Below, piece by piece: positions 11,143 through 60,258 of a stretch of 64,000 nt of DNA. The notes beneath the pieces are model-generated. The model saw only the letters and a program-made list of their open reading frames with translations. It was not told the origin of the DNA and searched no databases. This stretch comes from Patescibacteria group bacterium (lineage in GTDB: Bacteria > Patescibacteriota > Patescibacteriia > Magasanikbacterales > GWA2-37-8), in the NCBI GenBank assembly GCA_041661385.1, contig JBAZUP010000002.1, positions 78,670 to 142,669 on the forward strand, given 5' to 3'. The translations under genes were made by a program, and so were the position numbers. The number at the start of each line of letters is the position of its first letter. The stretch's first letter is position 1.

Positions 11143-11152
11143 TTATAATAAC

Positions 11153-11180
11153 AAAAAACCCCGATTCAATCGGGGTTTTT
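11153..11180 (+). terminator. rho-independent terminator of giant gene
   Basis: aaaaaccccgattcaatcggggttttttt: GC stem plus T-run. Confidence 0.7.
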
Positions 11181-11185
11181 TTATT

Positions 11186-11222
11186 ACCGACCTCCATTCC
11201 ATTGGATAGGAAAGAGGTCGGC
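11186..11222 (-). terminator. hairpin downstream of minus-strand GC-islet gene
   Basis: ccgacctc...gaggtcgg, an 8-bp stem directly after the stop of the 11243 gene. Confidence 0.4.
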
Positions 11223-11242
11223 GGTGATGAAGTTGGAGCGAA

Positions 11243-11980: not shown

Positions 11981-12341
11981 CGAGGTGCGACGGATCGGCA
12001 GGGAATTGGTCATGGGCTTCTCCAGGTGCATGGGAATGGTGAGTGGCATCAACTTTGCGTCGAGGGTCTGTTGTTTCATGATGAAACTTCCTTCGGCCTC
12101 AAGGGCCCGTTGTGGCCCTTTGGGCCGTTAAACTTCTACAGACATTTTCAGAATTCTTTGAAGCTAAGGCAGAAATAGAAAATAATGGATTATTTACTAC
12201 CTATTTCCACCTTAGCTTTTCCAACTTCATAGTGGTTATTATTGGTCAAAAAATGACTAAAATAACACATTGTAAAGAGCAAAAGATGTAATAAATACAT
12301 CATTGTTTTTCAACCCAATTCTATCATAAGAAAAACATATA

Positions 12342-12370
12342 AGTATACACCAAAATAGGGGTTTTGTCAA
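12342..12370 (-). promoter_or_regulatory. sigma70-like promoter (TTGACA-N17-TATACT) pointing at the GC-islet lipoprotein gene
   Basis: Minus strand reads gtttacTTGACAaaacccctattttggtgTATACT. A near-identical module recurs at 27017-27045. Confidence 0.4.
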
Positions 12371-12395
12371 GTAAACGCCCTTATCCCCATTTTCG

Positions 12396-12424
12396 TTGTT
12401 GGCACTCATTTTTTATGCTATAAT
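12396..12424 (+). promoter_or_regulatory. candidate promoter of the T4SS-like operon (extended -10 TGcTATAAT)
   Basis: ttgttg-N17-tgcTATAAT about 40 nt upstream of the 12461 start, in a 330-bp AT-rich intergenic region. Confidence 0.3.
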
Positions 12425-12460
12425 AAGAGCACGTTTGAAGATTTAATTCTCATTGTTTCC

Positions 12461-17510: not shown

Positions 17511-17512
17511 TT

Positions 17513-18964
17513 ATGTCTGATCAAGACGAAATAAAAATTTTAGTAAAGAAATCTGACGGCAGTTTTATACACATGCCGATTTCGGAAGTTCAAAAACACA
17601 ATCGGCTGACACCGACTGCGTCTTCCGCCGAGCCTGTTTTATCAAAACCGGCGGCTTTTAATCCCGCTGCGCCATTTGCTTCTGTACAGCCGGTTGCACC
17701 TGCTGCACCTCAAAAGCCAGCTGCGCCAGTTGCCCCTCAAAAACCAATTGAAAAACCGGTTGAAAAGAAACCGGAAACAATGCCAGTTGTAAAACCGGTA
17801 GAAAAAAATGAAGCATCGAAACCTAAATTTAATCCAAAAGAAAATGCCAGATTAGAAAAAGAAATTCCGGCGGTAATCAAAGCGGCGCCGGTAGTAAAAA
17901 ATACGCCACCGGTTGCAAGTGCGCCAATAAAAAATATTTCGGCGGCAGTACCACCCATTCCGGTTACGCCACCCCAATCGAAACCAGTGGTACCAAAAAT
18001 CGAACCGGTTAATTTGTCAGTAGTATCTGAAAAGAATGATATGGGTTCGCTGCTGGATGAAAAATTACCGAATGAAAATAAACTCACTCCGCTTACCAGT
18101 GAATCAAGAGATAAGCAAGTTGATGAGATAATTAAAAGTATTGGTTTTAAAATACCTCCTGGAAATAATAGTAGAGTAAAAACAATCATTCAATTATTTT
18201 TAAAAGAAGTTCGAGGCAAGGAAGAAACAATGGAAATTTTACGCCGGCCCGAAATTGATGGGGGAGTTGGTTTGTCCGATGAACAAGTAAATGAAGTTTT
18301 AGAAAAATGCAGTAAAACTACGGTATCAGCTGCCGGCAGTTTTTCCGTGCCATCGTTAAAAACTGTGCCGAAAATAACCGTGCCGATGCCAAATAAACTA
18401 GCAGCGATTCAAATAACAAGAATTACGAATTCGCAAGTAAGCACAAATGACAATAAGCGCTTAGAAGCAGAGTTGCCGGCTGTGGTAATAAAAACAGCAG
18501 CCCCAAAACTGCCGCCAAAACCAATTGCGACTGGAGATGCTAGAAAAATTTTAGAAGAACAAATAACTAAAAATACAATGTCGGAATTACCTGGTAATTT
18601 TACGATTAATTCCGATCGAAATAAAACGACCATGTCGGATGTAAAATCGGCTCCGGCTCAAATGGGACCGATTGAGGAAATTCGTTATTTTAGTTTGGTA
18701 GATTTTCGTAGGTTGTCCGGAGATCCGACCGAGGCTGCCAATCGGTTGAAACAAAAGTTTTTAAATCTTCACGAGGAATCAGTAGTTTTTTATTTTGAGG
18801 GGCTCGACGCCTGGAAAATTTCGCCGCTTTATCACGATTATATAAATTTGGTAAGTGAGGCGATAAAAAAACGCCAGACGCTGGCGCAAGTTGCAGTAGA
18901 TAAATCCAGAATACAAGTTTCGGAAATAAGCGCGCTTATTAAAATGGAAAAAGAATTAGGCTAG
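17513..18964 (+). CDS. hypothetical Pro/Ala/Lys-rich repeat protein
   Basis: PAAPQKPAAPVAPQKPIEKPVEKKPETMPVVKPVEK low-complexity repeats. Start is 3 nt after the preceding gene. Confidence 0.5.
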   Translation: MSDQDEIKILVKKSDGSFIHMPISEVQKHNRLTPTASSAEPVLSKPAAFNPAAPFASVQPVAPAAPQKPAAPVAPQKPIEKPVEKKPETMPVVKPVEKNEASKPKFNPKENARLEKEIPAVIKAAPVVKNTPPVASAPIKNISAAVPPIPVTPPQSKPVVPKIEPVNLSVVSEKNDMGSLLDEKLPNENKLTPLTSESRDKQVDEIIKSIGFKIPPGNNSRVKTIIQLFLKEVRGKEETMEILRRPEIDGGVGLSDEQVNEVLEKCSKTTVSAAGSFSVPSLKTVPKITVPMPNKLAAIQITRITNSQVSTNDNKRLEAELPAVVIKTAAPKLPPKPIATGDARKILEEQITKNTMSELPGNFTINSDRNKTTMSDVKSAPAQMGPIEEIRYFSLVDFRRLSGDPTEAANRLKQKFLNLHEESVVFYFEGLDAWKISPLYHDYINLVSEAIKKRQTLAQVAVDKSRIQVSEISALIKMEKELG

Positions 18965-18965
18965 T

Positions 18966-19406
18966 ATGCAACAATTTACCGTACCACAATTTATTGATGT
19001 TGAAGATAAAATTTTTGGTCCTGTTACAGCCCGTCAATTTAGTATTATGATTGGGGCGGTTGGTCCGATATTTTTAGCTTATAAACTCGCAGATTTTGCT
19101 TTATTTGTATTTATCGCGATTTTAATCGGCGGCACGGCAGCGATGTTTGCTTTTGTGCGCATAAATGGACAGGCTTTTCATTATTTTGTTTTAAATATTT
19201 TACAAACCTTACGTCGTCCAAGTCGTCGTCTTTGGTATAAAAGTTATACGAACGCTTCTTTGCAGGATTTTTTAAATTATGAAAAGCAAAATGTAAAAGA
19301 TAAATTGGATGCGGAAGATAATAAAATTGAAAAAAAAGTTATTTCCAATACGCGCATCAGAGATTTGTCGCTATTAGTGAATACCGGCGGGTATTTTAAA
19401 GTTTAA
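18966..19406 (+). CDS. small 2-TM membrane protein, VirB3/PrgI-like candidate
   Basis: 146 aa with two hydrophobic helices (IMIGAVGPIFLAYKL, ALFVFIAILIGGTAAMFAFV). Position just upstream of VirB4 matches prgI/virB3 in Gram-positive-type T4SS. Confidence 0.4.
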   Translation: MQQFTVPQFIDVEDKIFGPVTARQFSIMIGAVGPIFLAYKLADFALFVFIAILIGGTAAMFAFVRINGQAFHYFVLNILQTLRRPSRRLWYKSYTNASLQDFLNYEKQNVKDKLDAEDNKIEKKVISNTRIRDLSLLVNTGGYFKV

Positions 19407-19415
19407 TTTAAAAAC

Positions 19416-20102
19416 ATGAAAAGCAAAACCGAAGAAAAAAAGAAGAAAAGCATGGTTACGACCCAAAACCATTTGCTTATTTCTGAAATTAAACAGGACA
19501 CTGTAATAATGAAAGACGGTACTCTTCGCGCTGTTATTATGGTTTCGAGTATTAATTTTGCGTTAAAAAATGACGACGAACAAAATGCGATTATTCAGTC
19601 TTATGTCGGTTTTTTAAATTCACTCGACCATCCCTTGCAGGTCGTAATTCAATCTCGCAAATTACAAATCAAACCATATATCGACCGCCTAATTCAGCAG
19701 GAGCGCAATCAGACAAATGATTTATTGCGCACCCAAACCGCCGATTATCGGTCGTTCGTACTTGAGCTTGTAAAGCTTGGTGAAATTATGAACAAGCAAT
19801 TTTATGTGGTAGTTCCTTATGATCCGATTTCAAATAAAACAAAAAGTTACTGGAGTCGCGTGAAGGAAGTTATAAATCCTACGGCGGCGATTTCTTTAAA
19901 AGGTAAAAAATTTGATGAGCGCAAGAAAGATCTCGACAGCCGGGTACACCTTGTTGAAAGCGGTCTAACCAGCATTGGCTTACAAATTGCGAGGTTAAAT
20001 ACCCAATCGCTCATTGAACTATATTACTCAACTTATAATACTGACATTGCTTTGGTTCAGGAACTTGCCCCAATTGAGCAATTGCAGGTAGAAACAGAAT
20101 AA
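19416..20102 (+). CDS. VirB4/TraC N-terminal domain-like protein (first part of a split VirB4)
   Basis: LLISEIKQDTVIMKDGTLRAVIMVSSINFALKNDDEQNAIIQSYVGFLNS resembles the N-terminal region of VirB4/TrbE. It is in the same frame as the next ORF, separated by one TAA at 20100-20102. Confidence 0.5.
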   Translation: MKSKTEEKKKKSMVTTQNHLLISEIKQDTVIMKDGTLRAVIMVSSINFALKNDDEQNAIIQSYVGFLNSLDHPLQVVIQSRKLQIKPYIDRLIQQERNQTNDLLRTQTADYRSFVLELVKLGEIMNKQFYVVVPYDPISNKTKSYWSRVKEVINPTAAISLKGKKFDERKKDLDSRVHLVESGLTSIGLQIARLNTQSLIELYYSTYNTDIALVQELAPIEQLQVETE

Positions 20103-20105
20103 AAT

Positions 20106-22004
20106 TTGAGGTATAATGTAACAACTATGGCATTTAAGCCCACTAATCAAACAATTGAATCAAAGACCTCCGAGTCATTACTTGATAAGCAAAAAAATGT
20201 AATGAAAGATCGGGCCGAATCTGAGTTAGTAACGCTTGAGGAAGAGCGTATTTTTCGCGAGGGTGTAGTTTCGATTCGAGATCTTATTGCTCCGGCGGCA
20301 TTTAATGTTGAATCTAATTTTTTACAAATTGGTACCGCTTTTGCGCGAACAATTTTTGTCGCTTCTTATCCACGGTATATTTCTATTGGTTGGAGTTCGC
20401 CGATTATTAATCTTTCGGTAACCATGGATATCGCGATGTTTTTTTATCCGGTTAAATCTGAAATAATTTTAAAACAGCTTCGAAATAAAGTCGGTGCGCT
20501 CGAAGCGCAGATAACCTCGGATTCGGAAAAAGGCGCGCCTCGCGATCCGATTCGTGAAACCGCTCTTCGAGATATTGAAAAACTTCGTGATGATCTTACT
20601 CAAGGAATTGAACATTTTTTTCAGTTTGCTTTTTATGTCACTATTTATTCAGAATCCAAAGAAAAACTCGATACCGTATCGGCGGATGTCGAAAGCATTT
20701 TGGGCGCAAAATTAATCGGTACAAGAAAAGTATTGTTTCAATCTGAACAGGGTTTCAATTCGACCCTTCCGATTGGCGTGGATGAAATTATGGTTTCATT
20801 CAACATGAATTCAAGTCCGATTGCCGCTTCTTTTCCGTTTATTTCCGCCGAGCTTACTTCGGACAGCGGTATTCTTTATGGAATAAATCGCCATAACAAC
20901 AGTTTAATCTTGTTCGACAGATTTTCGCTTCAGAATGCCAACATGGCGGTATTTGCTACTTCCGGTGCTGGTAAAAGTTATTGCGTAAAACTGGAAATTT
21001 TGCGTACCCTCATGATGGGAGTAGATGTCATTGTTATTGATCCGGAAATGGAATATAAACATCTTAGTGATGCAGTCGGCGGTACCTACATAAATATTTC
21101 ACTTTCTTCGGAAAGTAAAATTAACCCATTTGATTTACCTCGGCCGGTCGGCCAGTCGATATCCGTCGAAGATGTTATTCGTGGCGCTGTCATTACCACC
21201 AAGGGCCTTTTGCGTATTATTTTTGGCGGTTTAAGCACTGCTCAGGACTCATTAATTGATCGGGCGCTCATTGAAACCTATGCCAAAAAAGATATTACCG
21301 CTGATTCTGATCTGGCCACCGTTCAGCCGCCGATTATGCAAGATTTGCTGGAAATTTTGGAAGGTTTAGAAGGCTCCGAGGAATTGGTGATGAAGCTGAA
21401 AAAGTTTACGGAAGGTACTTTTAGCGGTCTCTTTAATTCACCGACCAATGTCGATATAAAAAATCAACTGGTGATATTCAGCGTGCGAGATTTGGAAGAC
21501 GAACTTCGCCCGATTGCTATTTATACAATTATCAATTATATTTGGAACGTCGTTCGTTCTGAAACAAAAAAACGTATCTTGGTTATTGATGAGGCTTGGT
21601 GGCTTATGCAGCACGAAGATAGCGCCAGATTTATTTTTGCCCTGGTTAAGCGCTGCCGTAAGTATTATTTGGGAGTAACCACTATTACGCAGGATGTAAA
21701 TGATTTCTTGAAATCTCAATATGGACAGGCGATTGTCACGAACACTGCTTTGCAGATGCTTATGAAACAATCTCCGTCGGCGATTGATCTGATTCAAAAA
21801 GTATTTATGCTTACGGATAGTGAAAAATATCTTTTGCTAGAAAGCGGTGTTGGTGAGGGAATATTTTTTGCCGGTTTCAAACACGCGGCGATTAAAGTCG
21901 TTGCATCTTATACAGAAGACCAGATCGTTACAACTAATCCGGAACAACTGCTTCAGATTGAAAGAGCTAAAAAAGAATTTCAAGATCAACTTAAAAAAGA
22001 ATAA
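20106..22004 (+). CDS. virB4: VirB4/TrsE-family type IV secretion ATPase (ATPase domain)
   Basis: Walker A VFATSGAGKSYCVK, Walker B ILVIDEAWWLM, and VirB4-like C-terminal motifs. First ATG is at 20127; the track start at 20106 is TTG. Confidence 0.8.
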   Translation: MRYNVTTMAFKPTNQTIESKTSESLLDKQKNVMKDRAESELVTLEEERIFREGVVSIRDLIAPAAFNVESNFLQIGTAFARTIFVASYPRYISIGWSSPIINLSVTMDIAMFFYPVKSEIILKQLRNKVGALEAQITSDSEKGAPRDPIRETALRDIEKLRDDLTQGIEHFFQFAFYVTIYSESKEKLDTVSADVESILGAKLIGTRKVLFQSEQGFNSTLPIGVDEIMVSFNMNSSPIAASFPFISAELTSDSGILYGINRHNNSLILFDRFSLQNANMAVFATSGAGKSYCVKLEILRTLMMGVDVIVIDPEMEYKHLSDAVGGTYINISLSSESKINPFDLPRPVGQSISVEDVIRGAVITTKGLLRIIFGGLSTAQDSLIDRALIETYAKKDITADSDLATVQPPIMQDLLEILEGLEGSEELVMKLKKFTEGTFSGLFNSPTNVDIKNQLVIFSVRDLEDELRPIAIYTIINYIWNVVRSETKKRILVIDEAWWLMQHEDSARFIFALVKRCRKYYLGVTTITQDVNDFLKSQYGQAIVTNTALQMLMKQSPSAIDLIQKVFMLTDSEKYLLLESGVGEGIFFAGFKHAAIKVVASYTEDQIVTTNPEQLLQIERAKKEFQDQLKKE

Positions 22005-23296: not shown

Positions 23297-23368
23297 GCCG
23301 CGGTAGCTCAGTGGTAGAGCGAAGGCCTGAAGAGCCTTGCGTCGTGGGTTCGATCCCCACCTGCGGCA
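23297..23368 (+). tRNA. tRNA-Phe (GAA)
   Basis: Hand-folded cloverleaf: acceptor gccgcgg/ctgcggc, anticodon loop ctGAAga, T-arm gtggg-ttcgatc-cccac. No encoded CCA. Confidence 0.85.
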
Positions 23369-23471
23369 CGCTGTCCACCCCGACCCCCGACTTAAGACAC
23401 CTTCGGTTTCTTACGTCGCTTCGCTCCTATCTTTCCACTGCGGGGTGTCCAGATTTGCCTCAGGCAAATAA

Positions 23472-23545
23472 CGGGCTATGGCTCAATTGGCTAGAGCGTC
23501 TGGTTTGGGACCAGAAGGTTGTGAGTTCAAGTCTCACTAGCCCGA
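23472..23545 (+). tRNA. tRNA-Pro (TGG)
   Basis: Acceptor cgggcta/tagcccg, anticodon stem tctgg/ccaga with loop ttTGGga, T-arm gtgag-ttcaagt-ctcac. Confidence 0.85.
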
Positions 23546-23550
23546 CACGT

Positions 23551-37117: not shown

Positions 37118-37192
37118 TCCGGGATAGTTGAGTGGTACAACGCCACGCTGTTAACGTGGATATCCTAGGTTCGAATCCTAGTCCCGGAGCCA
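37118..37192 (+). tRNA. tRNA-Asn (GTT), CCA encoded
   Basis: Acceptor tccggga/tcccgga, anticodon stem ccacg/cgtgg with loop ctGTTaa, T-arm ctagg-ttcgaat-cctag. Its 3' end overlaps the recombinase stop region. Confidence 0.85.
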
Positions 37193-38677
37193 AGTAGGAT
37201 AAAGGGTTTTTTCGGCGAAAATACGCCAGCCCCTTTTGGCCAAGAATTCAAATTTTTTGCCTTTCACCGTAAAGTTCGAGCCGACATTTTTTAGAAAGGT
37301 ACGAATTTCATTGAGATCGCCTGCACGGGCGATTTTTTTGGCTTCACAACTGGATAAAATAAATTCCCTCATCGGTTCGAGCCAATTAGCGCCCTTGTTA
37401 TTAATTTCTTTCAATTTGCCTTCAGCTACCATTTTTTGATTCAGCAGTTTTTCTTTCTTTGTCAAATAATCGGCTTTATCTATTGTGCTGTCAAGATGCG
37501 AATCGAGCAATTTATCCATTTTTCCCTTTATTGCCGTTATTTGGCCTTCTAAGGCAACTACAAGGGCGCTGGATGCTTGTTTATTTGATTCCGCATCATT
37601 ATCTAGTTTAGCAAGCATCTGCTCGCCCAGGTCATCAGGTAAAGAAACTTTTTGCAAAACCTCTTTCAGCTGTTCGGCCAGCGCTTCTTCACGAATATAT
37701 TTTTCCTCGCATGTTCCTATTTTCTTGGTACAGCGATAGTACACATGACCCTTTTGTCTTTCAGCCGTTATATAGCAACCACACGAACCACATTTCATCA
37801 AACTGCAAAAAATATATTCGTGTTTCTTAATTTTGTGGGGCCGACCACGGTTTTGCATTATTGTTTGCACTTCGTCAAAAAGTTTCTTGGTAATCATTGG
37901 CTCGTGTTTTCCCTCGTGCAATTCGCCGTTGTATTTAAACACGCCAGAGTAAAAAGGATTTTTGAGAATTGATTGAAGTACGCTTACTGATAGTTTACTA
38001 TTGCTTTGGGTGCGTAGTCCTAAATCATTAAATTTTTCCGCAAGGACTTTTAAAGGATATTCACCAGTCGCGTACAATTCAAAAATCCTTTTTACAAGTT
38101 TATGCTTTGTCTTATCAATAAACATGGTGTGGTTTTTGAGATCATTCAAATACCCAAACGGCGCGCGGCCAGGGCATTCACCTCGGCGCAATTTTTGGCG
38201 CAAACCCCGTTTTACATTCTCGGAAAGATTATCAATGAAATATTTACTCTGGCCGAAAGCAATATTAAGCATAAACTTGCCTTGGGGCGTGTTTTCGAAC
38301 CAAAAAGTCGGAAATTTGAGGGAATTTATTTTTCCGGTGTCCACCAGGTAAATTATTTGTCCGCCGTCGATTGGATTACGAGCCAAACGATCAGGATGCC
38401 AAGCCAAAATGCCGTCGGCCTTTCCGCTATTGATAATTCGTAACATTTCACCGAACACAGTTCGGCCAGGCTGTTTGGCAGTTTTTGCCTCGCAAAGCGA
38501 GGTGACGATTTCAAGTTTTTCCTTTACGGCAAATTCTTTTAACTCGGCCAGTTGTGCGTCAATCGATAATACTTGTCGCTCTTCCTCGTCGGTCGATTTA
38601 CGAGCGTACAAAATGTATTTGGCCATACGATTATCAATTATATTTAGAAAAGTTTGTTTTTGGCGTCGTGCGACCAC
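37178..38677 (-). CDS. large serine recombinase (resolvase catalytic domain + recombinase domain + zinc ribbon + coiled coil)
   Basis: YARKSTDEEERQ...SIDAQ resolvase-type catalytic N-terminus (likely true start MAKYILYARKST, about 38626). CGSCG...C zinc ribbon. C-terminal coiled coil. Confidence 0.85.
   Translation of the reverse strand: MVARRQKQTFLNIIDNRMAKYILYARKSTDEEERQVLSIDAQLAELKEFAVKEKLEIVTSLCEAKTAKQPGRTVFGEMLRIINSGKADGILAWHPDRLARNPIDGGQIIYLVDTGKINSLKFPTFWFENTPQGKFMLNIAFGQSKYFIDNLSENVKRGLRQKLRRGECPGRAPFGYLNDLKNHTMFIDKTKHKLVKRIFELYATGEYPLKVLAEKFNDLGLRTQSNSKLSVSVLQSILKNPFYSGVFKYNGELHEGKHEPMITKKLFDEVQTIMQNRGRPHKIKKHEYIFCSLMKCGSCGCYITAERQKGHVYYRCTKKIGTCEEKYIREEALAEQLKEVLQKVSLPDDLGEQMLAKLDNDAESNKQASSALVVALEGQITAIKGKMDKLLDSHLDSTIDKADYLTKKEKLLNQKMVAEGKLKEINNKGANWLEPMREFILSSCEAKKIARAGDLNEIRTFLKNVGSNFTVKGKKFEFLAKRGWRIFAEKTLYPTWLRD
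37187..37263. repeat. IR-A left copy (77 bp). It includes the tRNA-Asn 3' end and the recombinase 3' end.
   Basis: Reverse complement matches 38681-38757 (gagccaagtaggataaagggttttttcggcgaaaatacgccagccccttttggccaagaattcaaattttttgcctt). Confidence 0.8.
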
Positions 38678-38680
38678 GAC

Positions 38681-38757
38681 AAGGCAAAAAATTTGAATTC
38701 TTGGCCAAAAGGGGCTGGCGTATTTTCGCCGAAAAAACCCTTTATCCTACTTGGCTC
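38681..38757. repeat. IR-A right copy (inverted), just upstream of the recombinase start
   Basis: Reverse complement of 37187-37263. Explains the shared peptide KKFEFLAKRGWRIFAEKTLYPTWL in two track ORFs. Confidence 0.8.
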
Positions 38758-38853
38758 GGAATGTACGAAAGAATACGAACGGAATTTACGGAATAGGGCG
38801 AGCGGAAGGAGGGGTTTGGGGAGGAATTCCGCCCGCCCACTGGCGCGCTTTTT
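38754..38853. repeat. IR-B left copy (100 bp)
   Basis: Reverse complement matches 44089-44188 with one mismatch (gctcggaatgtacgaaagaatacgaacggaatttacggaatagggcgagcggaaggaggggtttggggaggaattccgcccgcccac...). Confidence 0.8.
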
Positions 38854-38992
38854 AAAAACTGCCAAACAGCCTGAAAAAATGTCGGCTCAAACTTTACGGT
38901 GGCCAAAAGCAAACTTTTCTTTTCTCTGCGCTTGCCCCACCCGCCCGTTGCGCGCGCAGCGGGGTAGGAACTCCCTTTATAAATACTGAATA

Positions 38993-41242
38993 CTACACGT
39001 CAAATATAATATTCTCCTGCGCTTTGGCGTAAATATCAAGTCTATTTTTTAAATCGATTCTATTGACCAACCAACCCTGTAATTCGCACTGGTGGATAAA
39101 ATCATTAATTCTATTAATACCATATATTTCTTTTAGGGTTACCACGAGGCCAAACTTAATACCATCTCCATCTCTCGTGCCAAGTCTTTCTTTTGTTTTA
39201 ACACTTATCCCCCACATGCTATTATCATATGCTTTCCTAGGTAATAATTTTTCGCCAAATGTTTCCTGTATGTGTTTAGTATTGTCCCACTTGCGAAAAA
39301 ATTTTCTTGCGTCACCCTCATACATATAATGTGACTCGCCGTCGTCAACGCTTTGAGTGTTTCTGTTTATTGTCTTAATACCTTTTGTGTGAACCCTTCC
39401 AAGATACACATCCAGTTCGGTATTGGTATAATCTACTCCTTGGTTTATCGAACATTTGGGAAAATAACAGAGTGTAGCTTTTGCTACAAAGGGATATTTT
39501 TTATCATCAATAGGAACAGGAAGTTTGTAGTTGTATGTGTCATACATCTCTGAAACACCATTGATAATAAACCTTATCTCGTCATCGGGTGATTTAATTA
39601 TATCTTCTATGCGTTTCGGTACTATTCCATGGCCAATTAGTGCTGCAAGTCTTTGGTCGCACGCTTTATTACTCCATCCGGAAGCAGAATCCACAATTAA
39701 GGCTTTGGCTGTCTCTCTACTAAGACCCAAGACCTCGATTAGATATGCAACTTTTCTAGTTATCCAAGGTGCCGCAAAAGAAGTTCCCGTGCGAAGACCT
39801 TCACCGTTTGGTTCGCAAACTCGAATAAAATCTTCAGTAATCATATCACCCCCATAGCTACAGACATCTGGCTTGTTAAAAAATGACAAAACCAGCCCTT
39901 TTCTAGAATAAGAGGCGGGTGTATTTGTGCTGTTTACAGAATTGACCACTATCGAGTTTATGGAATCTGCTGGAGCGCCTATTCTTCTTTCGGTCTTAGG
40001 GTCTCTATTGTTGGTTCCCGCGATAATAAAAATTATATCTTTTTCGTATTGAATTTTGTCGAGTATGGCAGCTTCTGGCGATATTGAATTCAGGTTAATT
40101 TCGTTATCTGATCCCAAAGACAAGTTCCACACTTTAATGTCAGGGTTTGCTTCAACAATTTCTTCTATTAATTTCATAATTGTGAAGGCGCTGTACTGAC
40201 CCTTGGCTGCAACGCCAAAGTGCCGTACCTTAAACCTACCACAACCATCGTCGAGATCGGGGTTAATAACCGGTCCGTCCACAATAATAGAACTTATTGC
40301 CGTTCCGTGTTCATAGTCCTTTTGATCAAGTGGAATTTCATCATCGATCATTTTTTTGAATTTAACCCACTCAGAAAAATAAACCCTCGTATCAAACATG
40401 GTATCAATAACACCTATAGTTGGTTCATTATTTGGAGAATCAATAATATGACTATTTTTCTGGACCGTCTCGCTCAAAACATCATCATAACTTAATTTGG
40501 ATATATCCTCCGTTGCCATCGCTATAAGGTAAGGGGCTTTTTCCGTTAGGATTGTGATTTGAGGTGGCCTTAAGAGCATGGTGGTGTCACTGATCACTCT
40601 TTCTTCGGGGACATCAATGCCAATTTTTTGTAAAATTGTAATTGCATCAGCACTAGTTTTATAAATAGTTATAATTGATTGATTCTTTGTATTGATTCTG
40701 TTATCTGGAATTCCGAACCCTTCTACATAGTGCGAATCCGCAATAATATTGCAAAACGTTGATCGAGTAAGTCCATACTTATTAAATTCTATACCAAAAC
40801 TTCCAAGCTTTTCGAGCCCGTCAGCATCAATACTTCCTTTGAACTCGATGTTAAGTAATATGATACTTTTACTTAATTTTTCGATTGTATCATCAATTAT
40901 ATCGCCATGAACAAAATGAGTAATGATGTGTTTTTTTTCTCGGTCGCTGTCTGAGAATCTTGCGCCAACAACTGTGCTATTTGCGTGCATTTGACCTTTA
41001 GAAAAAAAGCCACTGATTCTATTACTTTTCGCCACAACGGTCGTGTACCTAACATCAATAAGGGCCCCACCAAGAACCTTCTCTTTTTTCCAATATTCTC
41101 CAAGTTGTTCCAGCCCCACTGACAGCGTCGTCAAATATTTAGATGTTACAGGAGGTGCGTTTTTTGGAATATTGCGAAATCCCGGCCTGTTTTTACTTGG
41201 CCGCTGCTGAAAGGAACCTTTTAACTGAAGTAGGTCATTCAT
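38993..41242 (-). CDS. S8-family subtilisin-like serine protease with N- and C-terminal extra domains (IetS-like)
   Basis: Catalytic triad contexts: IGVIDTMFD (Asp), HGTAISSII (His), GTSFAAPWITR (Ser). 749 aa, no signal peptide. Follows the AAA ATPase with a 3-nt gap. Confidence 0.8.
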   Translation of the reverse strand: MNDLLQLKGSFQQRPSKNRPGFRNIPKNAPPVTSKYLTTLSVGLEQLGEYWKKEKVLGGALIDVRYTTVVAKSNRISGFFSKGQMHANSTVVGARFSDSDREKKHIITHFVHGDIIDDTIEKLSKSIILLNIEFKGSIDADGLEKLGSFGIEFNKYGLTRSTFCNIIADSHYVEGFGIPDNRINTKNQSIITIYKTSADAITILQKIGIDVPEERVISDTTMLLRPPQITILTEKAPYLIAMATEDISKLSYDDVLSETVQKNSHIIDSPNNEPTIGVIDTMFDTRVYFSEWVKFKKMIDDEIPLDQKDYEHGTAISSIIVDGPVINPDLDDGCGRFKVRHFGVAAKGQYSAFTIMKLIEEIVEANPDIKVWNLSLGSDNEINLNSISPEAAILDKIQYEKDIIFIIAGTNNRDPKTERRIGAPADSINSIVVNSVNSTNTPASYSRKGLVLSFFNKPDVCSYGGDMITEDFIRVCEPNGEGLRTGTSFAAPWITRKVAYLIEVLGLSRETAKALIVDSASGWSNKACDQRLAALIGHGIVPKRIEDIIKSPDDEIRFIINGVSEMYDTYNYKLPVPIDDKKYPFVAKATLCYFPKCSINQGVDYTNTELDVYLGRVHTKGIKTINRNTQSVDDGESHYMYEGDARKFFRKWDNTKHIQETFGEKLLPRKAYDNSMWGISVKTKERLGTRDGDGIKFGLVVTLKEIYGINRINDFIHQCELQGWLVNRIDLKNRLDIYAKAQENIIFDV

Positions 41243-41245
41243 AAA

Positions 41246-42283
41246 CTACCCCCTAAGATCTCGTGATATCTGACTTTTTGATATTCCTGTGAGCATCTCC
41301 ATATCCCTAACAGAGAAGCCCTCCCTTTGTAAGTATTTTAAATCCGTTTTCTTATTCTTTGAATCGATAGATTCGTACAATTTTTTTAGATAGTCGAACT
41401 CATTGTTTGGATCACTAAATGCGAGCGAGGTTTTTATAATATTTTTTAGCTCACCGGGGTATGGCATTTCATCCATTAATGAAATAATTTTTTTAAACAA
41501 TCGCATATTGCGACCTGCAAATTTAAACTTTACTAAAAAATCATTAAGTATTGATTCAGCAACTTCAATTAAGTCGTTTCGACTGTATCTATTGAAGTTA
41601 ATGGTGGAATCGAATCTTCTGACTAATGCTTTATCAAATTTAATATAAAGGTTAGTCGTGGCAATAAGGATGGTACTAGCACTTAGACTGTCTAAACCCT
41701 TTAGCACCGACGATGTTACACGTCCCATTTCCCGTAAGTCGTTGGAATTTATCCTATCAAGAGCAATTGCATCTATTTCGTCAAAAAGTACGATCATCTT
41801 TTCTGGGTGGGGAAGTTCTTTTAGCTCTTTAAAGATAGTAACAATATTTTTTGATGTTTGACCAAGTTTGCTATCAATAACATTTTCAAAATCAACTGCA
41901 AACAACTCCCGCTCAAGTATTCTAGCTACTTGCTTGGCGGTCTCAGTCTTTCCTGTCCCAGGCTCGCCCTCAAACAAAAACTTATTTATTCCCGCGTTAT
42001 GACCTATTGAATTAATAATCCCTAAAATATCATTCTTGATTGGGGTGGGAAGTGGAAGAGCGCCTCCTGACAGACTTATTTTGGTCAAAAAAGGAAAATT
42101 TTGTTCGTTGTCTTGTGGTACGAATGTATTCGTGCCGGATAATAGCGCCATTATATATTCAGCAAGCTGCTGGTCGCCGTTTGCGTCAAAATATCGAGCT
42201 ATACTATAAGCTTCATTTCTAAAAGCCCCATCGTTTTTTTCTGCGTGATATTTTATTAAATTTAATATATTTTTTTTTCGCAT
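41246..42283 (-). CDS. AAA+ ATPase (IetA-like)
   Basis: Walker A GEPGTGKT, Walker B IVLFDEID, second region of homology ALVRRFD. Confidence 0.8.
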   Translation of the reverse strand: MRKKNILNLIKYHAEKNDGAFRNEAYSIARYFDANGDQQLAEYIMALLSGTNTFVPQDNEQNFPFLTKISLSGGALPLPTPIKNDILGIINSIGHNAGINKFLFEGEPGTGKTETAKQVARILERELFAVDFENVIDSKLGQTSKNIVTIFKELKELPHPEKMIVLFDEIDAIALDRINSNDLREMGRVTSSVLKGLDSLSASTILIATTNLYIKFDKALVRRFDSTINFNRYSRNDLIEVAESILNDFLVKFKFAGRNMRLFKKIISLMDEMPYPGELKNIIKTSLAFSDPNNEFDYLKKLYESIDSKNKKTDLKYLQREGFSVRDMEMLTGISKSQISRDLRG

Positions 42284-42536
42284 ATTTTCCTTTTATTTTT
42301 ATTCTAACACACCAGGGACGCATTTACAAGAAAATGGGACACAAACATAAAATCGACTACATTTCGCGAATAAGATAGGGCTTTTGACTTATTGTTTATT
42401 TCGGCGTATAATTATGCGACCACATTTTGGAGAAAGCGGTTTGTTAAGCAAAATATTGTTAATAAACCGAGTTTCCTAAAAAGAAACTCCTTTGTGCAAT
42501 GATGCATGAAGCCGAAACGAAGAAAGGGAAACACCA

Positions 42537-43475
42537 ATGCACCGTTCACTGTTGTTTGTTGTTCTCTTCATCACGGCCGTCGCAGTCGGCTGTGGTCGGC
42601 AGGGTTCGCCGGATGTGGCACAGGACCTTGGTGGCGCAAGCGCCTTCAAGGCTGTGCAGAATCTCAACCCCGGCCTCACCATCTACAAGGCATCCGGAGG
42701 CGAGCTCCGCGGAAGCTATCGCGCCAACAACAGCGCGATCCACTTCCAAGCCTTGCGCGGAGAGAATCTTGTGCTCGGCGTCAACACGGTCGATCCGGAT
42801 GCTCCCGCCTACGCCGTTTCCGTCCGGATCATCGACCAGGAAGGAAACCCTGTTGCGATCGCCATCGGCGATAGCGATGAAAGGATTTCCGCCTGGCAGG
42901 AGAAAGTGGAGGGACTCGGCACGGGTTCCAACCCCGACCTCAGTGAAACCTTCGTGCTCGCGCAGGAGGCCACAGATGTCCTGTCCCAGACCGTGACGAG
43001 CGGATTCGACGAGGAGATCAAGACCTTGAAGCGACGCAGCTTCACAGCTGCACCCGTCGCAAACGCACCCGGCCAGTCGAGCAAGATGCAGGCGCTTTCC
43101 TCGACGTGGAGGTACTGGCTCCGGATGTTCCGGAAGGATGCCAACTTCAACGGCAACTTCGCCGATCACTCCGCCGTCATCGTGAATGTGACCAAGCCAG
43201 ACGGAACGATCCTGAACTACGTCACCTGCAACCACGGTACCTGCGCGGACGATCCGTCCATGCAGTTCCGGTGTCAGAACACGGTCTACCCGGCAAGCCA
43301 GCGTCCGTTCGCGATCTTGCCGTGCGATTCGGTTTCTTCCTATGGCTTCTTCTCGGGCCAACACGTCTGCAACGATGATACTCTGGTGCAAGTCAACATG
43401 GTCGTGTACGGCAATAGCAGTCTCACGACCTGCACCGACTCGTCGTTGCGCCTCTGGGCACCTTCTTGCAGCTAG
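42537..43475 (+). CDS. GC-rich islet: secreted lipoprotein (312 aa)
   Basis: Lipobox LFITAVAVGCG, SD gaaagggaaa upstream. GC-rich block 42480-43545. 15-bp perfect hairpin gatgtcggcgctcgc...gcgagcgccgacatc after the stop. The minus-strand 310-aa Arg-rich ORF is an antisense artefact. Confidence 0.55.
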   Translation: MHRSLLFVVLFITAVAVGCGRQGSPDVAQDLGGASAFKAVQNLNPGLTIYKASGGELRGSYRANNSAIHFQALRGENLVLGVNTVDPDAPAYAVSVRIIDQEGNPVAIAIGDSDERISAWQEKVEGLGTGSNPDLSETFVLAQEATDVLSQTVTSGFDEEIKTLKRRSFTAAPVANAPGQSSKMQALSSTWRYWLRMFRKDANFNGNFADHSAVIVNVTKPDGTILNYVTCNHGTCADDPSMQFRCQNTVYPASQRPFAILPCDSVSSYGFFSGQHVCNDDTLVQVNMVVYGNSSLTTCTDSSLRLWAPSCS

Positions 43476-43609
43476 CAAGTCGGCCTAACCAGTAGGCGAT
43501 CACAAAGGATGTCGGCGCTCGCTCCTCGCGAGCGCCGACATCGCAACTTTTACACATATTTGTTATAATACCCACATATTTATAATAATACTTATTTATA
43601 ATAATACTT

Positions 43610-44047
43610 ATGAAAAATATTATATTATCTCCAGTGCCCTTTAAAAAAATAATTACTATTTTTTTTGCTGGCTTAGTTGGTGCCTTGATATTTGGCTTAC
43701 TATTTGGTTTGGTCGGTTTATTGTTTGCCAACAATCTCGGGTTTAAGGTCGCTATTGGTTCAGAAGAATTAACTATGGGAGCAAGCGCGATATTTTACTG
43801 TCTTCTTAGTACGCCTTTTGGCGCAATGTTTGGTGTTTGGATTGCCTCTAAGATGGCAGGTTATAAATCTAATTATTTGTATTATTTTTTAACGACTTTA
43901 TTTTTAGTTGTTATTGGTCTATTTTTTAGAGACTATTTTAATTTGTTTGCATTTGTGGCATATGCCGCTGTCTGTTCAATTACCCTAACAGCTGTAATTA
44001 ATTATTTTGCTAAAATTAAATCGCAAAATGTATCTACTCAGAAGTAA
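43610..44047 (+). CDS. small polytopic membrane protein
   Basis: Four hydrophobic helices, AT-rich native composition. Lies inside the IR-B-bounded segment. Confidence 0.5.
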   Translation: MKNIILSPVPFKKIITIFFAGLVGALIFGLLFGLVGLLFANNLGFKVAIGSEELTMGASAIFYCLLSTPFGAMFGVWIASKMAGYKSNYLYYFLTTLFLVVIGLFFRDYFNLFAFVAYAAVCSITLTAVINYFAKIKSQNVSTQK

Positions 44048-44088
44048 TAATTTTGTAAGTCTAGTTAAAGGAAAAACTTGAAATCGTC

Positions 44089-44188
44089 AAAAAGCGCGCC
44101 GGTGGGCGGGCGGAATTCCTCCCCAAACCCCTCCTTCCGCTCGCCCTATTCCGTAAATTCCGTTCGTATTCTTTCGTACATTCCGAGC
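44089..44188. repeat. IR-B right copy (inverted)
   Basis: Reverse complement of 38754-38853. Confidence 0.8.
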
Positions 44189-44214
44189 AAATACAAAAAA
44201 GCACCCTAAAATGG

Positions 44215-44357
44215 GTGTTTTTTTGTATTTTGTTTTGCGTCTGGATTCGAACGGAAGATGGTAATAAACGAAGTTTCTTACTTGCCGAGGAAAGTCCACG
44301 AAAACCCGAAGGTTGTCGTGAGAGAGAACGAAGTGAGCGCATTCGAATAGCCAAGCG
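44215..44357 (+). repeat. tRNA-3'-adjacent structured element, copy C (next to the tRNA-Asn 3'-end repeat)
   Basis: Inverted T-loop copy ctggattcgaacgg (44241-44254). Core cttgccgaggaaagtccacgaaaacccgaaggttgtcgtgagagagaacgaagtgagcg (44281-44339) is about 95% identical to 60165-60232. Followed by cctagtcccggagc. Confidence 0.6.
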
Positions 44358-44371
44358 CCTAGTCCCGGAGC
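44358..44371 (+). repeat. direct repeat of the tRNA-Asn 3' end (putative attR core)
   Basis: cctagtcccggagc is identical to 37177-37190. A degenerate third copy tctagtcctggggc sits near 44685. A hairpin terminator follows at 44372-44404. Confidence 0.6.
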
Positions 44372-44759
44372 ATAATAAATAAGCACACCATAATGGTGTG
44401 CTTATTTATTATGATTCAAAGGTTGGATTCGTTTTATTTTATAATATTGCTATAATTAACGTATAATGAAAGTCAAATTATGAAAAAATACCATAGACGA
44501 ATACTATATTCTATTTTCGCAATAGTATTTGGTGTGTTTATGTTTATATATGGTGGGTACGATGACAGTCCGGGTGGGCAAGGATTGGGGCTATTACTAA
44601 TTATTATTGGTATTGTTGGATTAGTAAAAAACAAAAAAATATCTTCGTAAAGCTAGTAAAATGAGCACGTTTGAATAGTGAAGCGTCTAGTCCTGGGGCT
44701 AATAAAAATATTGACAAAGTGCTAATTTAGTGCTATTTATAAGACAAGGAGGCAAAATC

Positions 44760-57299: not shown

Positions 57300-58862
<1,563 letters not shown>

Positions 58863-59455: not shown

Positions 59456-59581
59456 GAGGACCTGGAAGGTGGCGCGCTAGTTAGCGCGCCACCTTCCACA
59501 CAATACACAATACCCGGTGTATTTTTGTTTGGCTTTAGCTTGACTTTTTGACAACTTTTGTATATAATTTTCAGTACTTAT

Positions 59582-59658
59582 GGGCAATTAGCTCAGTTGG
59601 TTAGAGCGTTACATTGACATTGTAAAGGTCAGAGGTTCAACTCCTCTATTGCCCACCA
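59582..59658 (+). tRNA. tRNA-Val (GAC), CCA encoded
   Basis: Acceptor gggcaat/attgccc, anticodon stem ttaca/tgtaa with loop ttGACat, T-arm agagg-ttcaact-cctct. Confidence 0.85.
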
Positions 59659-59773
59659 GAGTTGAACAAGGGTTGGAAAGGGAAGTATTCCCTTTCTTGT
59701 TGAGGAAGAGTATTGAGAAACCCGAAGGTTTCTCAAAGAGCGTAAGCGAGTTCAACTCCTCTATTGCCCACCA
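59659..59773 (+). repeat. tRNA-3'-adjacent structured element, copy A (after tRNA-Val)
   Basis: Begins gagttgaac, the reverse complement of the tRNA T-loop gttcaactc. Hairpins gaaaggga-agta-ttccctttc and gagaaacc-cgaa-ggtttctc. Ends with a 24-bp direct repeat of the tRNA 3' end, gttcaactcctctattgcccacca (59750-59773 = 59635-59658). Confidence 0.6.
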
Positions 59774-59787
59774 AACTATGAAGTCAT

Positions 59788-60003
59788 ATGGAAAATGAAT
59801 CAAGTTTAGAAATTAAGAAATTGAATGAGTTGGCAGATAAGCTAGAAGAGCTAAATGGTGGTAAAGAGATTCCTGGTGCTTTAGGAGTATTTGTGAAATT
59901 GCTGAGGGTAGGAAAACGCGAAGAAGCCGTCTCAAGAGTAAAAAATGAATTGTTCGACAAATTGACCGATGAAGAAAGAAAAATAATTGGCGATTATTTA
60001 TAG
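59788..60003 (+). CDS. small hypothetical helical protein (71 aa)
   Basis: ORF between tRNA-Val and tRNA-Ile. Charged helical sequence. Confidence 0.35.
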   Translation: MENESSLEIKKLNELADKLEELNGGKEIPGALGVFVKLLRVGKREEAVSRVKNELFDKLTDEERKIIGDYL

Positions 60004-60011
60004 TAAATAGC

Positions 60012-60085
60012 GGGCGTGTAGCTCAGATGGTTAGAGCGCGTCACTGATAATGACGAGGTCCCCGGTTCGATTCCAGGCACGCCCA
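60012..60085 (+). tRNA. tRNA-Ile (GAT)
   Basis: Acceptor gggcgtg/cacgccc, anticodon loop ctGATaa, T-arm cccgg-ttcgatt-ccagg... No encoded CCA. Confidence 0.85.
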
Positions 60086-60250
60086 CATAAATAAAAATTC
60101 CCAACAGGGGATTTTTTATTTATGTTAGCCTGTGAATCGAACGGGAAAGGGAGAAAACGGGAGTTTTCTCTTGCCGAGGAAAGTCCACGAAAACCCGAAG
60201 GTTTTCGTGAGAGCGAACGAAGTGAGCGAGTGAGATTCCGCACGCCCACA
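60086..60250 (+). repeat. tRNA-3'-adjacent structured element, copy B (after tRNA-Ile)
   Basis: Terminator-like hairpin. Inverted T-loop copy cctgtgaatcgaacggg. Hairpin gagaaaac-ggga-gttttctc. Core cttgccgaggaaagtccacgaaaacccgaaggttttcgtgagagcgaacgaagtgagcg. Partial direct copy of the tRNA-Ile 3' end, gattccgcacgcccaca. Confidence 0.6.
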
Positions 60251-60258
60251 TATAAAGA

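Follow-up and report, generated by a model that had tools for sequence, protein, structure and literature searches.

Several described systems share features with the element reported here. MITE-like repeats (Correia/NEMIS, RPE, ERIC, REPIN) are likewise short, gene-less, multi-copy and foldable, carry inverted terminal sequences, and vary in presence between relatives. tRNA-gene integrative elements and CIMEs also duplicate the tRNA tail from the T-loop, use tmRNA, and leave the tRNA gene intact; repeats from the T-loop to the tRNA end and tmRNA targeting are classic signatures of integrase-type tRNA integration. Integron attC sites are similar in size (~60-140 nt), have imperfect inverted ends (...AAC / GTT...), depend on single-stranded structure, and have a sequence conserved within one lineage. 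In IS200/IS605 omega RNA and IS110 bridge RNA, a folded scaffold bears variable target-matching segments, one sense and one antisense. Further parallels exist with tRNA-like structures, the tRNA-like domain of tmRNA, and permuted tmRNA, in that some copies (L122) rebuild the acceptor and T stems, discriminator, and CCA. R2 is a site-specific retroelement in 28S rDNA that is co-transcribed with the RNA gene (PMC3414825). R2 and tRNA-related SINEs resemble the element in an orientation locked to the host RNA gene, in co-transcription (probable for the element), in a 3' end homologous to the target, in variable-length duplications with one fixed edge, and in gene-less non-autonomous forms.

The original prediction described three instances of one plan next to tRNA genes. 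All three (copies A, B, and C) are located where it placed them in the window, that is, the whole 64,000-nt stretch of DNA analysed, and further copies exist: 17 elsewhere in Magasanikbacteria-like Patescibacteria bring the total to 20 distinct copies. Their hosts are at least 11 tRNA types (including Val, Ile, Asn, Glu, Met, Ser, Asp, Gly, Leu, and Thr) and one tmRNA, and every copy shares the strand of the adjacent tRNA. The element is ~100-170 bp long and has no genes; a 71-aa ORF 3' of copy A was rejected as cargo because it is missing at every other locus. With modest confidence, the favored explanation is a new gene-less, non-autonomous insertion element, specific to the 3' side of tRNA and tmRNA genes, that would be co-transcribed with its tRNA.

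The shared plan begins with X, the host tRNA stretch from T-loop position ~54-58 through the 3' end, followed by an optional terminator hairpin, an inverted copy of X (rcX), a core, and a direct copy of X (X'). The terminator-like hairpin between X and rcX is frequent, and its stem begins within the tRNA end. The T-loop/T-stem portion of rcX is kept throughout the family; in several copies rcX spans the entire acceptor strand, generating a long palindrome with the tRNA. The conserved core (~95-110 nt) comprises three hairpins and purine-rich joining strands (GGGAAAGG / UUGCNGAGGAAAG / AGAGCGA / AGCGAG). X' measures 13-52 bp and in some copies continues into native downstream DNA. In the predicted core string, cttgNNgaggaaRgtcc, the last four letters do not hold: gtcc after GAGGAAR is not conserved and is the foot of hairpin 2. 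The segment given as GAGAGCGAACGAAGTGAGCG is corrected to AGAGCGA, a variable third hairpin, and AGCGAG. Copy A (59659-59773) illustrates the plan at tRNA-Val:

59540-59568: promoter-like site by tRNA-Val
59582-59658, plus strand: tRNA-Val(GAC), host of copy A; X, T-loop to CCA, is 59635-59658
59659-59667, plus strand: rcX GAGTTGAAC, the inverted Val T-loop, a 9-mer from the inverted-repeat comparison
59676-59696, plus strand: hairpin 1
59697-59712, plus strand: joining strand 2, CTTGTTGAGGAAGAGTA, with GAGGAAG at 59702-59708
59713-59736, plus strand: hairpin 2, TTGAGAAACC CGAA GGTTTCTCAA
59737-59749, plus strand: joining strands 3/4, AAGAGCGTAAGCGA
59750-59773, plus strand: X', a perfect 24-nt direct copy of tRNA-Val from T-loop to CCA

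The predicted Val direct repeat is exact (24/24, 59635-59658 = 59750-59773). Here rcX abuts the tRNA-Val CCA without an intervening terminator, and the first 9 nt of X' pair with rcX to form P1. The CGAA loop and stem top of hairpin 2 are invariant.

Copy B (60129-60252) lies behind tRNA-Ile:

60012-60086, plus strand: tRNA-Ile(GAT), host of copy B
60078-60132, plus strand: long palindrome of the tRNA-Ile acceptor 3' end, a terminator hairpin (60093-60116), and the start of the inverted copy
60129-60142, plus strand: rcX CCTGTGAATCGAAC, the inverted Ile T-arm
60143-60229, plus strand: core, starting with joining strand 1, GGGAAAGG
60149-60172, plus strand: hairpin 1
60176-60183, plus strand: joining strand 2, containing GAGGAAAG
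60186-60209, plus strand: hairpin 2, then AGAGCGA
60217-60223, plus strand: hairpin 3, then GAGCGA
60230-60252, plus strand: X', GTGAGATTCC then GCACGCCCACATA, a direct tRNA-Ile tail copy with a 2-nt deletion

The inverted T-arm copy at 60134-60145 is 92% complementary to 60062-60073. The tail copy predicted for Ile is present, its length now set at 13/13 (60077-60089 = 60240-60252), with GATTCC before it after a 2-nt gap.

A first genome-wide pattern was too loose: among the 116 loci that it gave, 6 proved genuine. In the 64-kb window, a covariance model derived from the family finds A, B, and C at E values of 1e-22 to 1e-32 and has no other match; core strings match B and C alone there, and 100 shuffles gave no match. 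The 'possible fourth copy' suggested after tRNA-Phe scores 4.5 bits on the opposite strand and does not belong to the family. The B and C cores are alike, as proposed, though their flanks match different tRNAs, but at 58/64 (~91%) rather than ~95% identity. About one-third of tRNAs bear an element. Most of these have an inverted T-loop 11-mer on their 3' side with 0-3 mismatches (mostly 0-2), and element-free tRNAs have one with 3-5 mismatches; the exceptions are L134 and the L094 tRNA-Ser(tga) copy, where the inverted T-loop is degenerate (5/11 mismatches), as at element-free tRNAs. L094 also has a short variant of the element. An origin of rcX as a native tRNA-terminator feature was rejected, since it is absent 3' of element-free tRNAs. 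At L128, a core lies between two tRNAs with neither flank present.

Copy C (44240-44371) is parted from its tRNA by a large-serine-recombinase island, which is context outside the element:

37118-37192, plus strand: tRNA-Asn(GTT), to which copy C originally belonged; the island now lies between them
37187-44191: large-serine-recombinase island at the tRNA-Asn 3' end
37178-38677, minus strand: LSR
38993-41242: IetS
41246-42283: IetA
44089-44191: conserved far end of the island
44189-44231, plus strand: terminator-like hairpin, originally after tRNA-Asn by comparison with L133 (terminator 1 of copy C)
44240-44252, plus strand: rcX TCTGGATTCGAAC, the inverted Asn T-arm
44253-44340, plus strand: core
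44262-44280, plus strand: hairpin 1
44287-44294, plus strand: GAGGAAAG
44297-44320, plus strand: hairpin 2, then AGAGAGA
44328-44334, plus strand: hairpin 3, then GAGCGC
44341-44371, plus strand: X', with T-loop copy ATTCGAAT, a further small hairpin at 44349-44358, and 14-nt copy CCTAGTCCCGGAGC (44358-44371)
44372-44415: terminator-like palindrome 3' of copy C

The 14-bp Asn direct repeat is confirmed (CCTAGTCCCGGAGC, 37177-37190 = 44358-44371). The position of copy C, 7 kb from tRNA-Asn on the far side of the island, and the 14-bp tail copy at its end could suggest that the elements are a remnant or outer arm of the island, as could a reading of this repeat as an island attR. Yet the conserved island end stops at ~44191, ahead of terminator 1 and copy C. 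This 103-110-bp end recurs in three related islands (L133, L134, L135), where it abuts host DNA without a core. Therefore, copy C is neither an attR arm nor a CIME-like remnant of the island, and the island was evidently inserted later, between tRNA-Asn and its element. Moreover, the element core is unrelated to either island end (44089-44191, 37187-37263), and A, B, and 17 other copies have no island, which refutes this origin and leaves it virtually no probability.

Evidence for insertion comes from relatives, ordered by the identity of a neighboring RlmD-like protein. The orthologous Val and Ile sites are both filled in L129 (74%), half-filled in L130 (72%), which has the Ile element only, with Val and Ile 6 nt apart, and empty in L132 (62%) and L136 (57%). 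This pattern argues for insertion rather than a fixed trailer, in line with the original prediction. A tRNA-Ile with an element is also found at the distant locus L122. No fresh insertion was seen between near-identical strains. Since no transposase, integrase, or reverse transcriptase is linked to the family, mobility is inferred entirely from presence and absence, and precise direct-repeat loss from an old, vertically inherited feature could give the same pattern. The B and L130 Ile copies share the 2-nt X' deletion and are still identical to the tRNA tail over 11-13 nt, which indicates descent from one insertion together with constraint or gene conversion. Such a history is as compatible with a functional RNA as with a selfish element.

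The duplicated target has a left edge within the T-loop in every case and a variable right edge, with direct repeats of 24 bp in copy A, 21 in L122, 27 in L123, 41 in L135, and 52 in L113 (terminator included). The mature tRNA was rejected as the template of X', because the L113, L123, and L135 repeats run beyond the tRNA end. All 52 bp of the L113 direct repeat match, but its rcX is imperfect; thus, rcX is not made anew at each insertion. The L135 repeat takes in rcX, which a simple staggered-cut scheme does not predict. The inverted repeats formed by rcX and X' (9-19 bp) are terminal, as in MITEs, but copy the neighboring tRNA rather than a transposase-specific end. Nor is there a short target-site duplication of constant length outside them. 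Unlike those of MITE-like repeats, the direct repeats are long, vary from 13 to 52 bp, and have one fixed edge; they overlap with the right inverted repeat, and a terminator lies between the left repeat and rcX. Another difference from MITE-like repeats is that the element occurs exclusively 3' of tRNA and tmRNA genes and always in the tRNA orientation.

The direct repeats, from the T-loop to or past the tRNA end and with tmRNA also a target, would fit miniature attP-only integrative elements (CIME-like) whose tyrosine or serine integrase is encoded at another locus. A small circle of tRNA-tail copy, terminator, rcX, and core would integrate and excise at the T-loop, its core hairpins offering arm-type or accessory sites for binding that may be read in single-stranded form, like integron attC. 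A T-loop-to-3'-end identity block does occur at both insert ends, although this feature is common to other mechanisms, and in L113 and L123 the identity continues into downstream sequence. tRNA-type lineages have features of their own (an extra hairpin is common to the two Glu copies, and a different one to the two Ser copies), and the rcX end ...CGAAC and X' start GTTCG... faintly echo the inverse-core and core sites of attC. However, the ends NYCGAAC ... GT(T/G)(C/A)GA do not match the attC consensus RYYYAAC ... GTTRRRY, and the elements are attached to tRNA genes, outside cassette arrays, with neither intI nor an array at element loci. Unlike CIMEs, the element is 100-170 bp, carries an extra inverted tail copy, and has one core across many tRNA identities; tolerance of 11 or more different tRNA tails is hardly to be expected from a single site-specific integrase. 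No cognate integrase lies within the element or beside any of the 10 copies examined. The only recombinase in the window is the island LSR, whose att arms are unrelated to the element and whose related islands lack the core. A 100-170-bp double-stranded circle would be physically strained, and the covariation of the stems and their G-U pairs point to a fold of single strands rather than protein sites on duplex DNA. Movement as attP-only elements is accordingly very improbable.

The proposed stem covariation is borne out. Hairpins 1 and 2 are 95.9% paired across copies, with both sides changed in 13 of 21 pairs; shifted-partner controls give 35-57% pairing, and the observed values were reached in 0-1 of 500 shuffles. 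Two of the pairs are frequently G-U (15/20 and 11/20), a pattern that fits only the tRNA-sense strand and so places the fold there. Single-sequence folds of A, L122, L123, L120, L113, and L135 give P1 and three hairpins (z -2.9 to -6.1), and the models show rcX:X' pairing closing the core into a predicted four-way junction on the tRNA-sense strand, which leaves the copied acceptor 3' strand (CCA where encoded) as a tail.

This structure may instead belong to a host small RNA, or to a module for processing or mimicking tRNA transcripts, with patchiness arising through loss. A four-way-junction RNA cut from the tRNA precursor would display the acceptor 3' strand and CCA, extended in some copies to a complete minihelix of acceptor and T stem. 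Its targets or partners would belong to the tRNA machinery (RNase P, RNase Z, CCA-adding enzyme, synthetase), or it would be a toxin decoy. Consistent with such a role are the sense-strand structure, the GNRA-like loops of hairpin 1, the invariant hairpin 2, the location of some elements within tRNA operons (L128, L135), and the L122 fold, whose 15-bp P1 rebuilds the acceptor and T stems with a 3' CACCA left over. Likewise, rcX and X' of L122 and L120 agree together against their own tRNA, and the X' tail stays tRNA-identical in B and L130 despite changed intergenic surroundings. On the other hand, both L129 copies have kept the core and lost the tail, about two-thirds of tRNAs and close relatives do without the element, several copies sit behind a predicted terminator, and the acceptor mimic is complete in few copies. 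The hairpin of rcX with the real tRNA is as good as or better than rcX:X' and would harm rather than help tRNA folding. A host RNA is thus possible but unlikely. Compared with tRNA-like structures, the element has its T-loop paired and lacks any counterpart of the D and anticodon parts as well as a tag reading frame.

Judged by its sequence, the family matches no described RNA or mobile-element family. With Rfam 15, only tRNA, tmRNA, and rRNA pass the gathering threshold and no element does; the best sub-threshold overlaps are Clostridiales-2 (22.9 vs 58.6 bits) and permuted tmRNA (33.8 vs 47 bits), the latter covering the X-terminator-rcX stretch. Relaxing the Rfam cutoff to E <= 10 likewise assigned the element to no family. 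Self-cleaving ribozymes (hammerhead, HDV-like, twister, pistol, hatchet, hairpin) gave no Rfam match even at E <= 10, and ARAGORN and the Rfam tRNA/tmRNA models call only the genuine upstream genes. The core string resembles an RNase P-like string, GAGGAAAGUCC; this lead was dropped, as the family conserves only GAGGAAAG of it and has no RNase P match. Phage, plasmid, and viral-contig searches returned no match to the element, two viral pattern matches being chance hits within coding sequence.

Partner enzymes were sought as well. No recombinase, reverse transcriptase, or transposase, and no conserved neighboring gene, was found beside the 10 copies examined; the window has no reverse transcriptase, and no transposase-bearing parent with the same ends was seen in the window or beside these copies. 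The element therefore differs from R2 and SINEs in lacking a detected reverse transcriptase or self-cleaving ribozyme, in being bacterial, and in having no poly(A) or simple-repeat tail. It differs from omega and bridge RNAs in that no TnpB, IscB, or IS110-type recombinase is adjacent in the window or at the 10 copies, and in that its target-matching segments are physical duplications continuing into the flanks rather than internal loops. An improbable but related scheme is a homing element without protein genes whose own RNA carries the address, the antisense rcX and sense X' flanks serving as guides or as primer/homology arms. Here both copies of the cognate tRNA tail would flank a four-way-junction scaffold, and in the fullest copies they rebuild, as a 'genomic tag', the minihelix of acceptor and T stem together with CCA. 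Insertion at the T-loop-to-tail segment of the matching tRNA gene would fall to an enzyme acting in trans, whether a reverse transcriptase, a nuclease, or a recombinase, and new flanks alone would suffice for retargeting.

For the favored non-autonomous insertion element, the proposed course is as follows. Copies A, L128, L134, and L135, which have no front terminator or lie inside tRNA operons, suggest that the element is transcribed together with its tRNA. It would be mobilized in trans, or spread by recombination through the tRNA-tail copy that it carries. The target would be duplicated from the fixed T-loop point to a variable downstream point, as either a staggered-break/target-primed mechanism or Campbell-type recombination could produce, and precise loss could follow by recombination between the direct repeats.

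With this family, the non-coding repertoire of candidate-phyla-radiation bacteria, about which little is known, gains a widespread structured element that had not been described and that is tied to their most conserved genes. The duplicated tRNA tails of the element imitate attL/attR pairs and will mislead genomic-island finders, as with the island described here, whose true boundary lies ~180 bp from the tRNA-tail copy that ends copy C, and its filled and empty sites provide strain-level markers. A constant scaffold with flanks copied from the target in both directions is a layout otherwise seen in guide-RNA or target-primed systems, and a partner enzyme, if found, could reveal a new mode of site-specific insertion.

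Three gene-less folded inserts in the window, each 3' of a tRNA gene, belong to a genuine and previously undescribed family of elements of ~100-170 bp. The RNA genes of the window, located with ARAGORN and Rfam, and the three element copies are listed here.

23297-23369, tRNA-Phe
23472-23546, tRNA-Pro
37118-37192, tRNA-Asn
44240-44371, copy C (tRNA-Asn)
57300-58860, 16S rRNA gene
59582-59658, tRNA-Val
59659-59773, copy A (tRNA-Val)
60012-60086, tRNA-Ile
60129-60252, copy B (tRNA-Ile)

The original prediction of one shared plan stands: the plan is present in the sequence after tRNA-Val, after tRNA-Ile and at 44240-44371, and a repeat finder confirmed its details. Direct repeats are perfect for Val (24 nt, 59635-59658 and 59750-59773) and Ile (13 nt, 60077-60089 and 60240-60252), and the Asn repeat, CCTAGTCCCGGAGC, occupies 37177-37190 and 44358-44371. 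The same program matched the 9-mer at 59659-59667 (inverted T-loop, copy A) to both 59635-59643 and 59750-59758, found the inverted T-arm of copy B (60134-60145) to be 92% complementary to 60062-60073, and returned two perfect 10-bp stems with CGAA loops in the window. Long core strings are shared in the window only by B and C, whose cores are identical at 58 of 64 positions; 100 shuffles gave no match.

On the tRNA strand, the element reads X, an optional terminator hairpin, rcX, core and X'. X is the tRNA segment from the T-loop to the 3' end, rcX is X inverted, and X' is X copied in direct orientation. The terminator hairpin is usually there, its stem starting within the final tRNA bases. 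rcX invariably ends in (A/T)TCGAAC, or TGAAC for Val. At loci L122, L120, L125, L117, L111 and L113, outside the window, rcX spans everything from T-loop to CCA, so that tRNA tail, terminator and rcX form a single long palindrome; in copy B the palindrome arms found by the repeat finder are 25 nt long and 84% complementary. The core consists of three hairpins: the first has mostly GNRA-like loops, the second an invariant top, AAACC-CGAA-GGTTT, and the third, absent in some copies and up to ~20 nt long in others, frequently has a GAA or GCA loop. The strands joining them are purine-rich (GGGAAAGG, TTGCNGAGGAAAG, AGAGCGA and AGCGAG). X' begins with GTTCG or GTGAG, the latter forming a tandem G-A pair opposite CGAAC, and is identical to the cognate tRNA from about T-loop position 57 on. 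In some tRNA-specific lineages a further small hairpin separates the T-loop copy from the T-stem copy; the two Glu copies have one type of it, both Ser copies and copy C another.

Pattern scans of genome and metagenome collections, plus look-up of orthologous loci, yielded 17 more distinct copies outside the window, or 20 in all. Most come from MAGs that bear the label Candidatus Magasanikbacteria or Patescibacteria group; proteins encoded in the window are likewise labelled Patescibacteria. All 20 lie 3' of a tRNA or tmRNA gene and on its strand (Val x2, Ile x4, Asn, Glu x2, Met, Ser x2, Asp, Gly x2, Leu, Thr x2, one tmRNA and one partial class-II tRNA). A covariance model trained on 15 copies scores every member at E 1e-15 to 1e-32 and finds exactly three in the window. 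The phage, plasmid and viral-contig collections searched contained nothing resembling the element, and no Rfam family lay at or near threshold for it. Sub-threshold Rfam matches to permuted tmRNA (L125 1967-2082 and L122 1091-1230, minus strand, 33.8 and 21.5 bits) span the tRNA/tmRNA tail, terminator and rcX and stem from the succession of acceptor 3' strand, hairpin and acceptor-5'-like strand.

The covariance model does not capture the whole family, since it misses a ~70-nt relative in L094 (~290-400, minus strand) after tRNA-Ser(CGA) (409-497). This short form combines a terminator, the T-loop in inverted orientation (GGATTCGAA), a single GAAGCGAAGTG-loop hairpin and 16 nt of the tRNA tail copied in direct orientation. 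Separately, L094 (~2040-2200, minus strand) and L123 (upstream of tRNA-Ser 399-487) hold tRNA-Ser(UGA)-like copies that ARAGORN does not call as tRNAs. Their anticodon loop contains a ~29-nt insert of two hairpins, with UUCG and GCA loops and with stems covarying from one genome to the other; this insert may represent a small intron-like insertion.

A degenerate fourth copy had been proposed after tRNA-Phe. The Phe-Pro spacer (23370-23471, 102 nt) folds strongly (z -3.9). Its plus strand has a C(UUCG)G loop, its minus strand contains GAGCGAAGCGA and AAACCGAAGGT, and it partly echoes the tRNA-Phe tail. It was rejected as a family member: the unfiltered covariance model gives it only 4.5 bits, for one minus-strand hairpin. 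With just 4 nt between Phe and Pro in L120, the spacer may represent a separate insertion or a very distant one.

Pairing statistics from a model-guided alignment of 20 copies support the fold. In hairpins 1 and 2, standard pairs fill 95.9% of cells, and 13 of 21 pairs change on both sides; just 0-1 of 500 shuffles attain these values, and shifting the partner by 1-3 columns lowers pairing to 35-57%. Two pair positions are mainly G-U or U-G (15/20 and 11/20 copies), which would be A-C mismatches on the opposite strand, placing the fold on the tRNA-sense strand. Folded as single sequences, A, L122, L123, L120, L113 and L135 give a closed multibranch structure (z -2.9 to -6.1) in which rcX pairs with X' as a closing helix, P1, and three hairpins radiate from the junction; this structure was not returned for B, C, L111 or L117, with no P1 in B and C. 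Covariation in P1 is not independent evidence, because both of its strands derive from the tRNA, although in L122 and L120 rcX and X' match each other where they differ from their own tRNA. In most copies the predicted pairing is confined to the T-loop/T-stem part, leaving the acceptor 3' strand as a free tail. The predicted P1 of L122 is 15 bp long and reproduces the tRNA-Ile acceptor and T stems, with CACCA unpaired. This minihelix mimic, together with conservation of the X' tail in B and the L130 Ile copy, makes a functional RNA a serious rival to an insertion element.

Orthologous loci, fetched via the RlmD-like gene adjoining copy B, point, as had been suggested, to insertion rather than a conserved tRNA trailer.

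Occupancy of orthologous sites (locus; RlmD-like identity; Val site; Ile site)
L129; 74%; filled; filled
L130; 72%; empty (Val-Ile gap 6 nt); filled
L132; 62%; empty; empty
L136; 57%; empty; empty

In L129 the acceptor part of X' has decayed in both copies. An Ile element is also present in the compositionally distant L122, so the elements are patchily distributed. Most element-bearing tRNAs are followed by an inverted copy of the T-loop with 0-3 mismatches in 11 positions, and the best match at element-free tRNAs has 3-5; the exceptions, L134 and the L094 tRNA-Ser(tga) copy, bear the element yet show 5. Direct repeats start constantly in the T-loop and differ in where they stop: copy A at CCA, L123 12 nt beyond the tRNA, L113 behind the terminator (a perfect repeat of 52 bp) and L135 behind rcX (41 bp). 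A 2-nt deletion in X' common to B and the L130 Ile copy shows that both stem from one insertion. Their single origin, the different subtypes of their first hairpins and the near-identical B and C cores in one genome together point to exchange between copies. A 71-aa ORF without a Pfam match (59788-60003), between copy A and tRNA-Ile, is missing from L129, L130, L132 and all other fetched loci.

Copy C had been placed beside an attR-like repeat of tRNA-Asn. The ORF adjoining tRNA-Asn encodes a large serine recombinase; homologues 72-80% identical to it likewise lie against the 3' ends of tRNA genes (Asn, Gln and Trp). Repeats at 37187-37263 and 44089-44191 delimit the island in the window, whose cargo is an IetA/IetS defence pair, and 44071-44178 matches the far ends of the homologues' islands. 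The L133 island ends in CCGTTCGTATTTGTTCATATCTCCGGAGCCA, followed by host DNA; the window island ends in CCGTTCGTATTCTTTCGTACATTCCGAGCA, followed by terminator 1 and copy C. None of three related islands has a core at its end, so copy C is an ordinary tRNA-Asn element, independent of the island, which is, judged from these ends, a later insertion between tRNA-Asn and copy C.

The island repeats form two pairs, 37187-37263 with 38681-38757 and 38751-38853 with 44089-44191. Just upstream of the recombinase gene, an attP-like stretch (38681-38853) carries the island's own joined ends, inverted and intact; 77 nt of it match the island ends at 100% identity and 103 nt at 98%. An inversion switch or a self-excision site is conceivable here, and BLAST matches point to the same arrangement in the related islands at tRNA-Asn, tRNA-Gln and tRNA-Trp. 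Elsewhere, 3238-22004 looks like a type-IV-secretion-like or surface-protein region, with very large ORFs (2634 and 1256 aa) without a Pfam match and an adjoining TraG/VirB4-like ATPase (20106-22004).

A near-consensus promoter, TTGACT-17-TATAAT (59540-59568), lies upstream of tRNA-Val, and no terminator separates this gene from copy A; one is predicted at 60093-60116 between tRNA-Ile and B. The L128, L134 and L135 copies lie directly between or after tRNAs with no intervening terminator, and at least these must, on this predicted arrangement, be transcribed with the tRNAs.

No mobility gene was found adjoining the 10 copies examined, and the element would be non-autonomous. Insertion would duplicate a target segment that begins at a fixed position in the T-loop and ends at a variable position downstream, either through staggered breaks and target-primed or fold-back synthesis, or through Campbell-type recombination of a unit carrying its own tRNA-tail copy, which would also account for lineages restricted to one tRNA type. 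Neither scheme fits everything, given the imperfect rcX of the otherwise "young" L113 and the rcX within the L135 repeat. Small non-autonomous insertion elements and tRNA-tail integrative elements are the closest in kind, but the element lacks their defining features. Its layout, a constant scaffold between sense and antisense target copies, invites a more novel reading.
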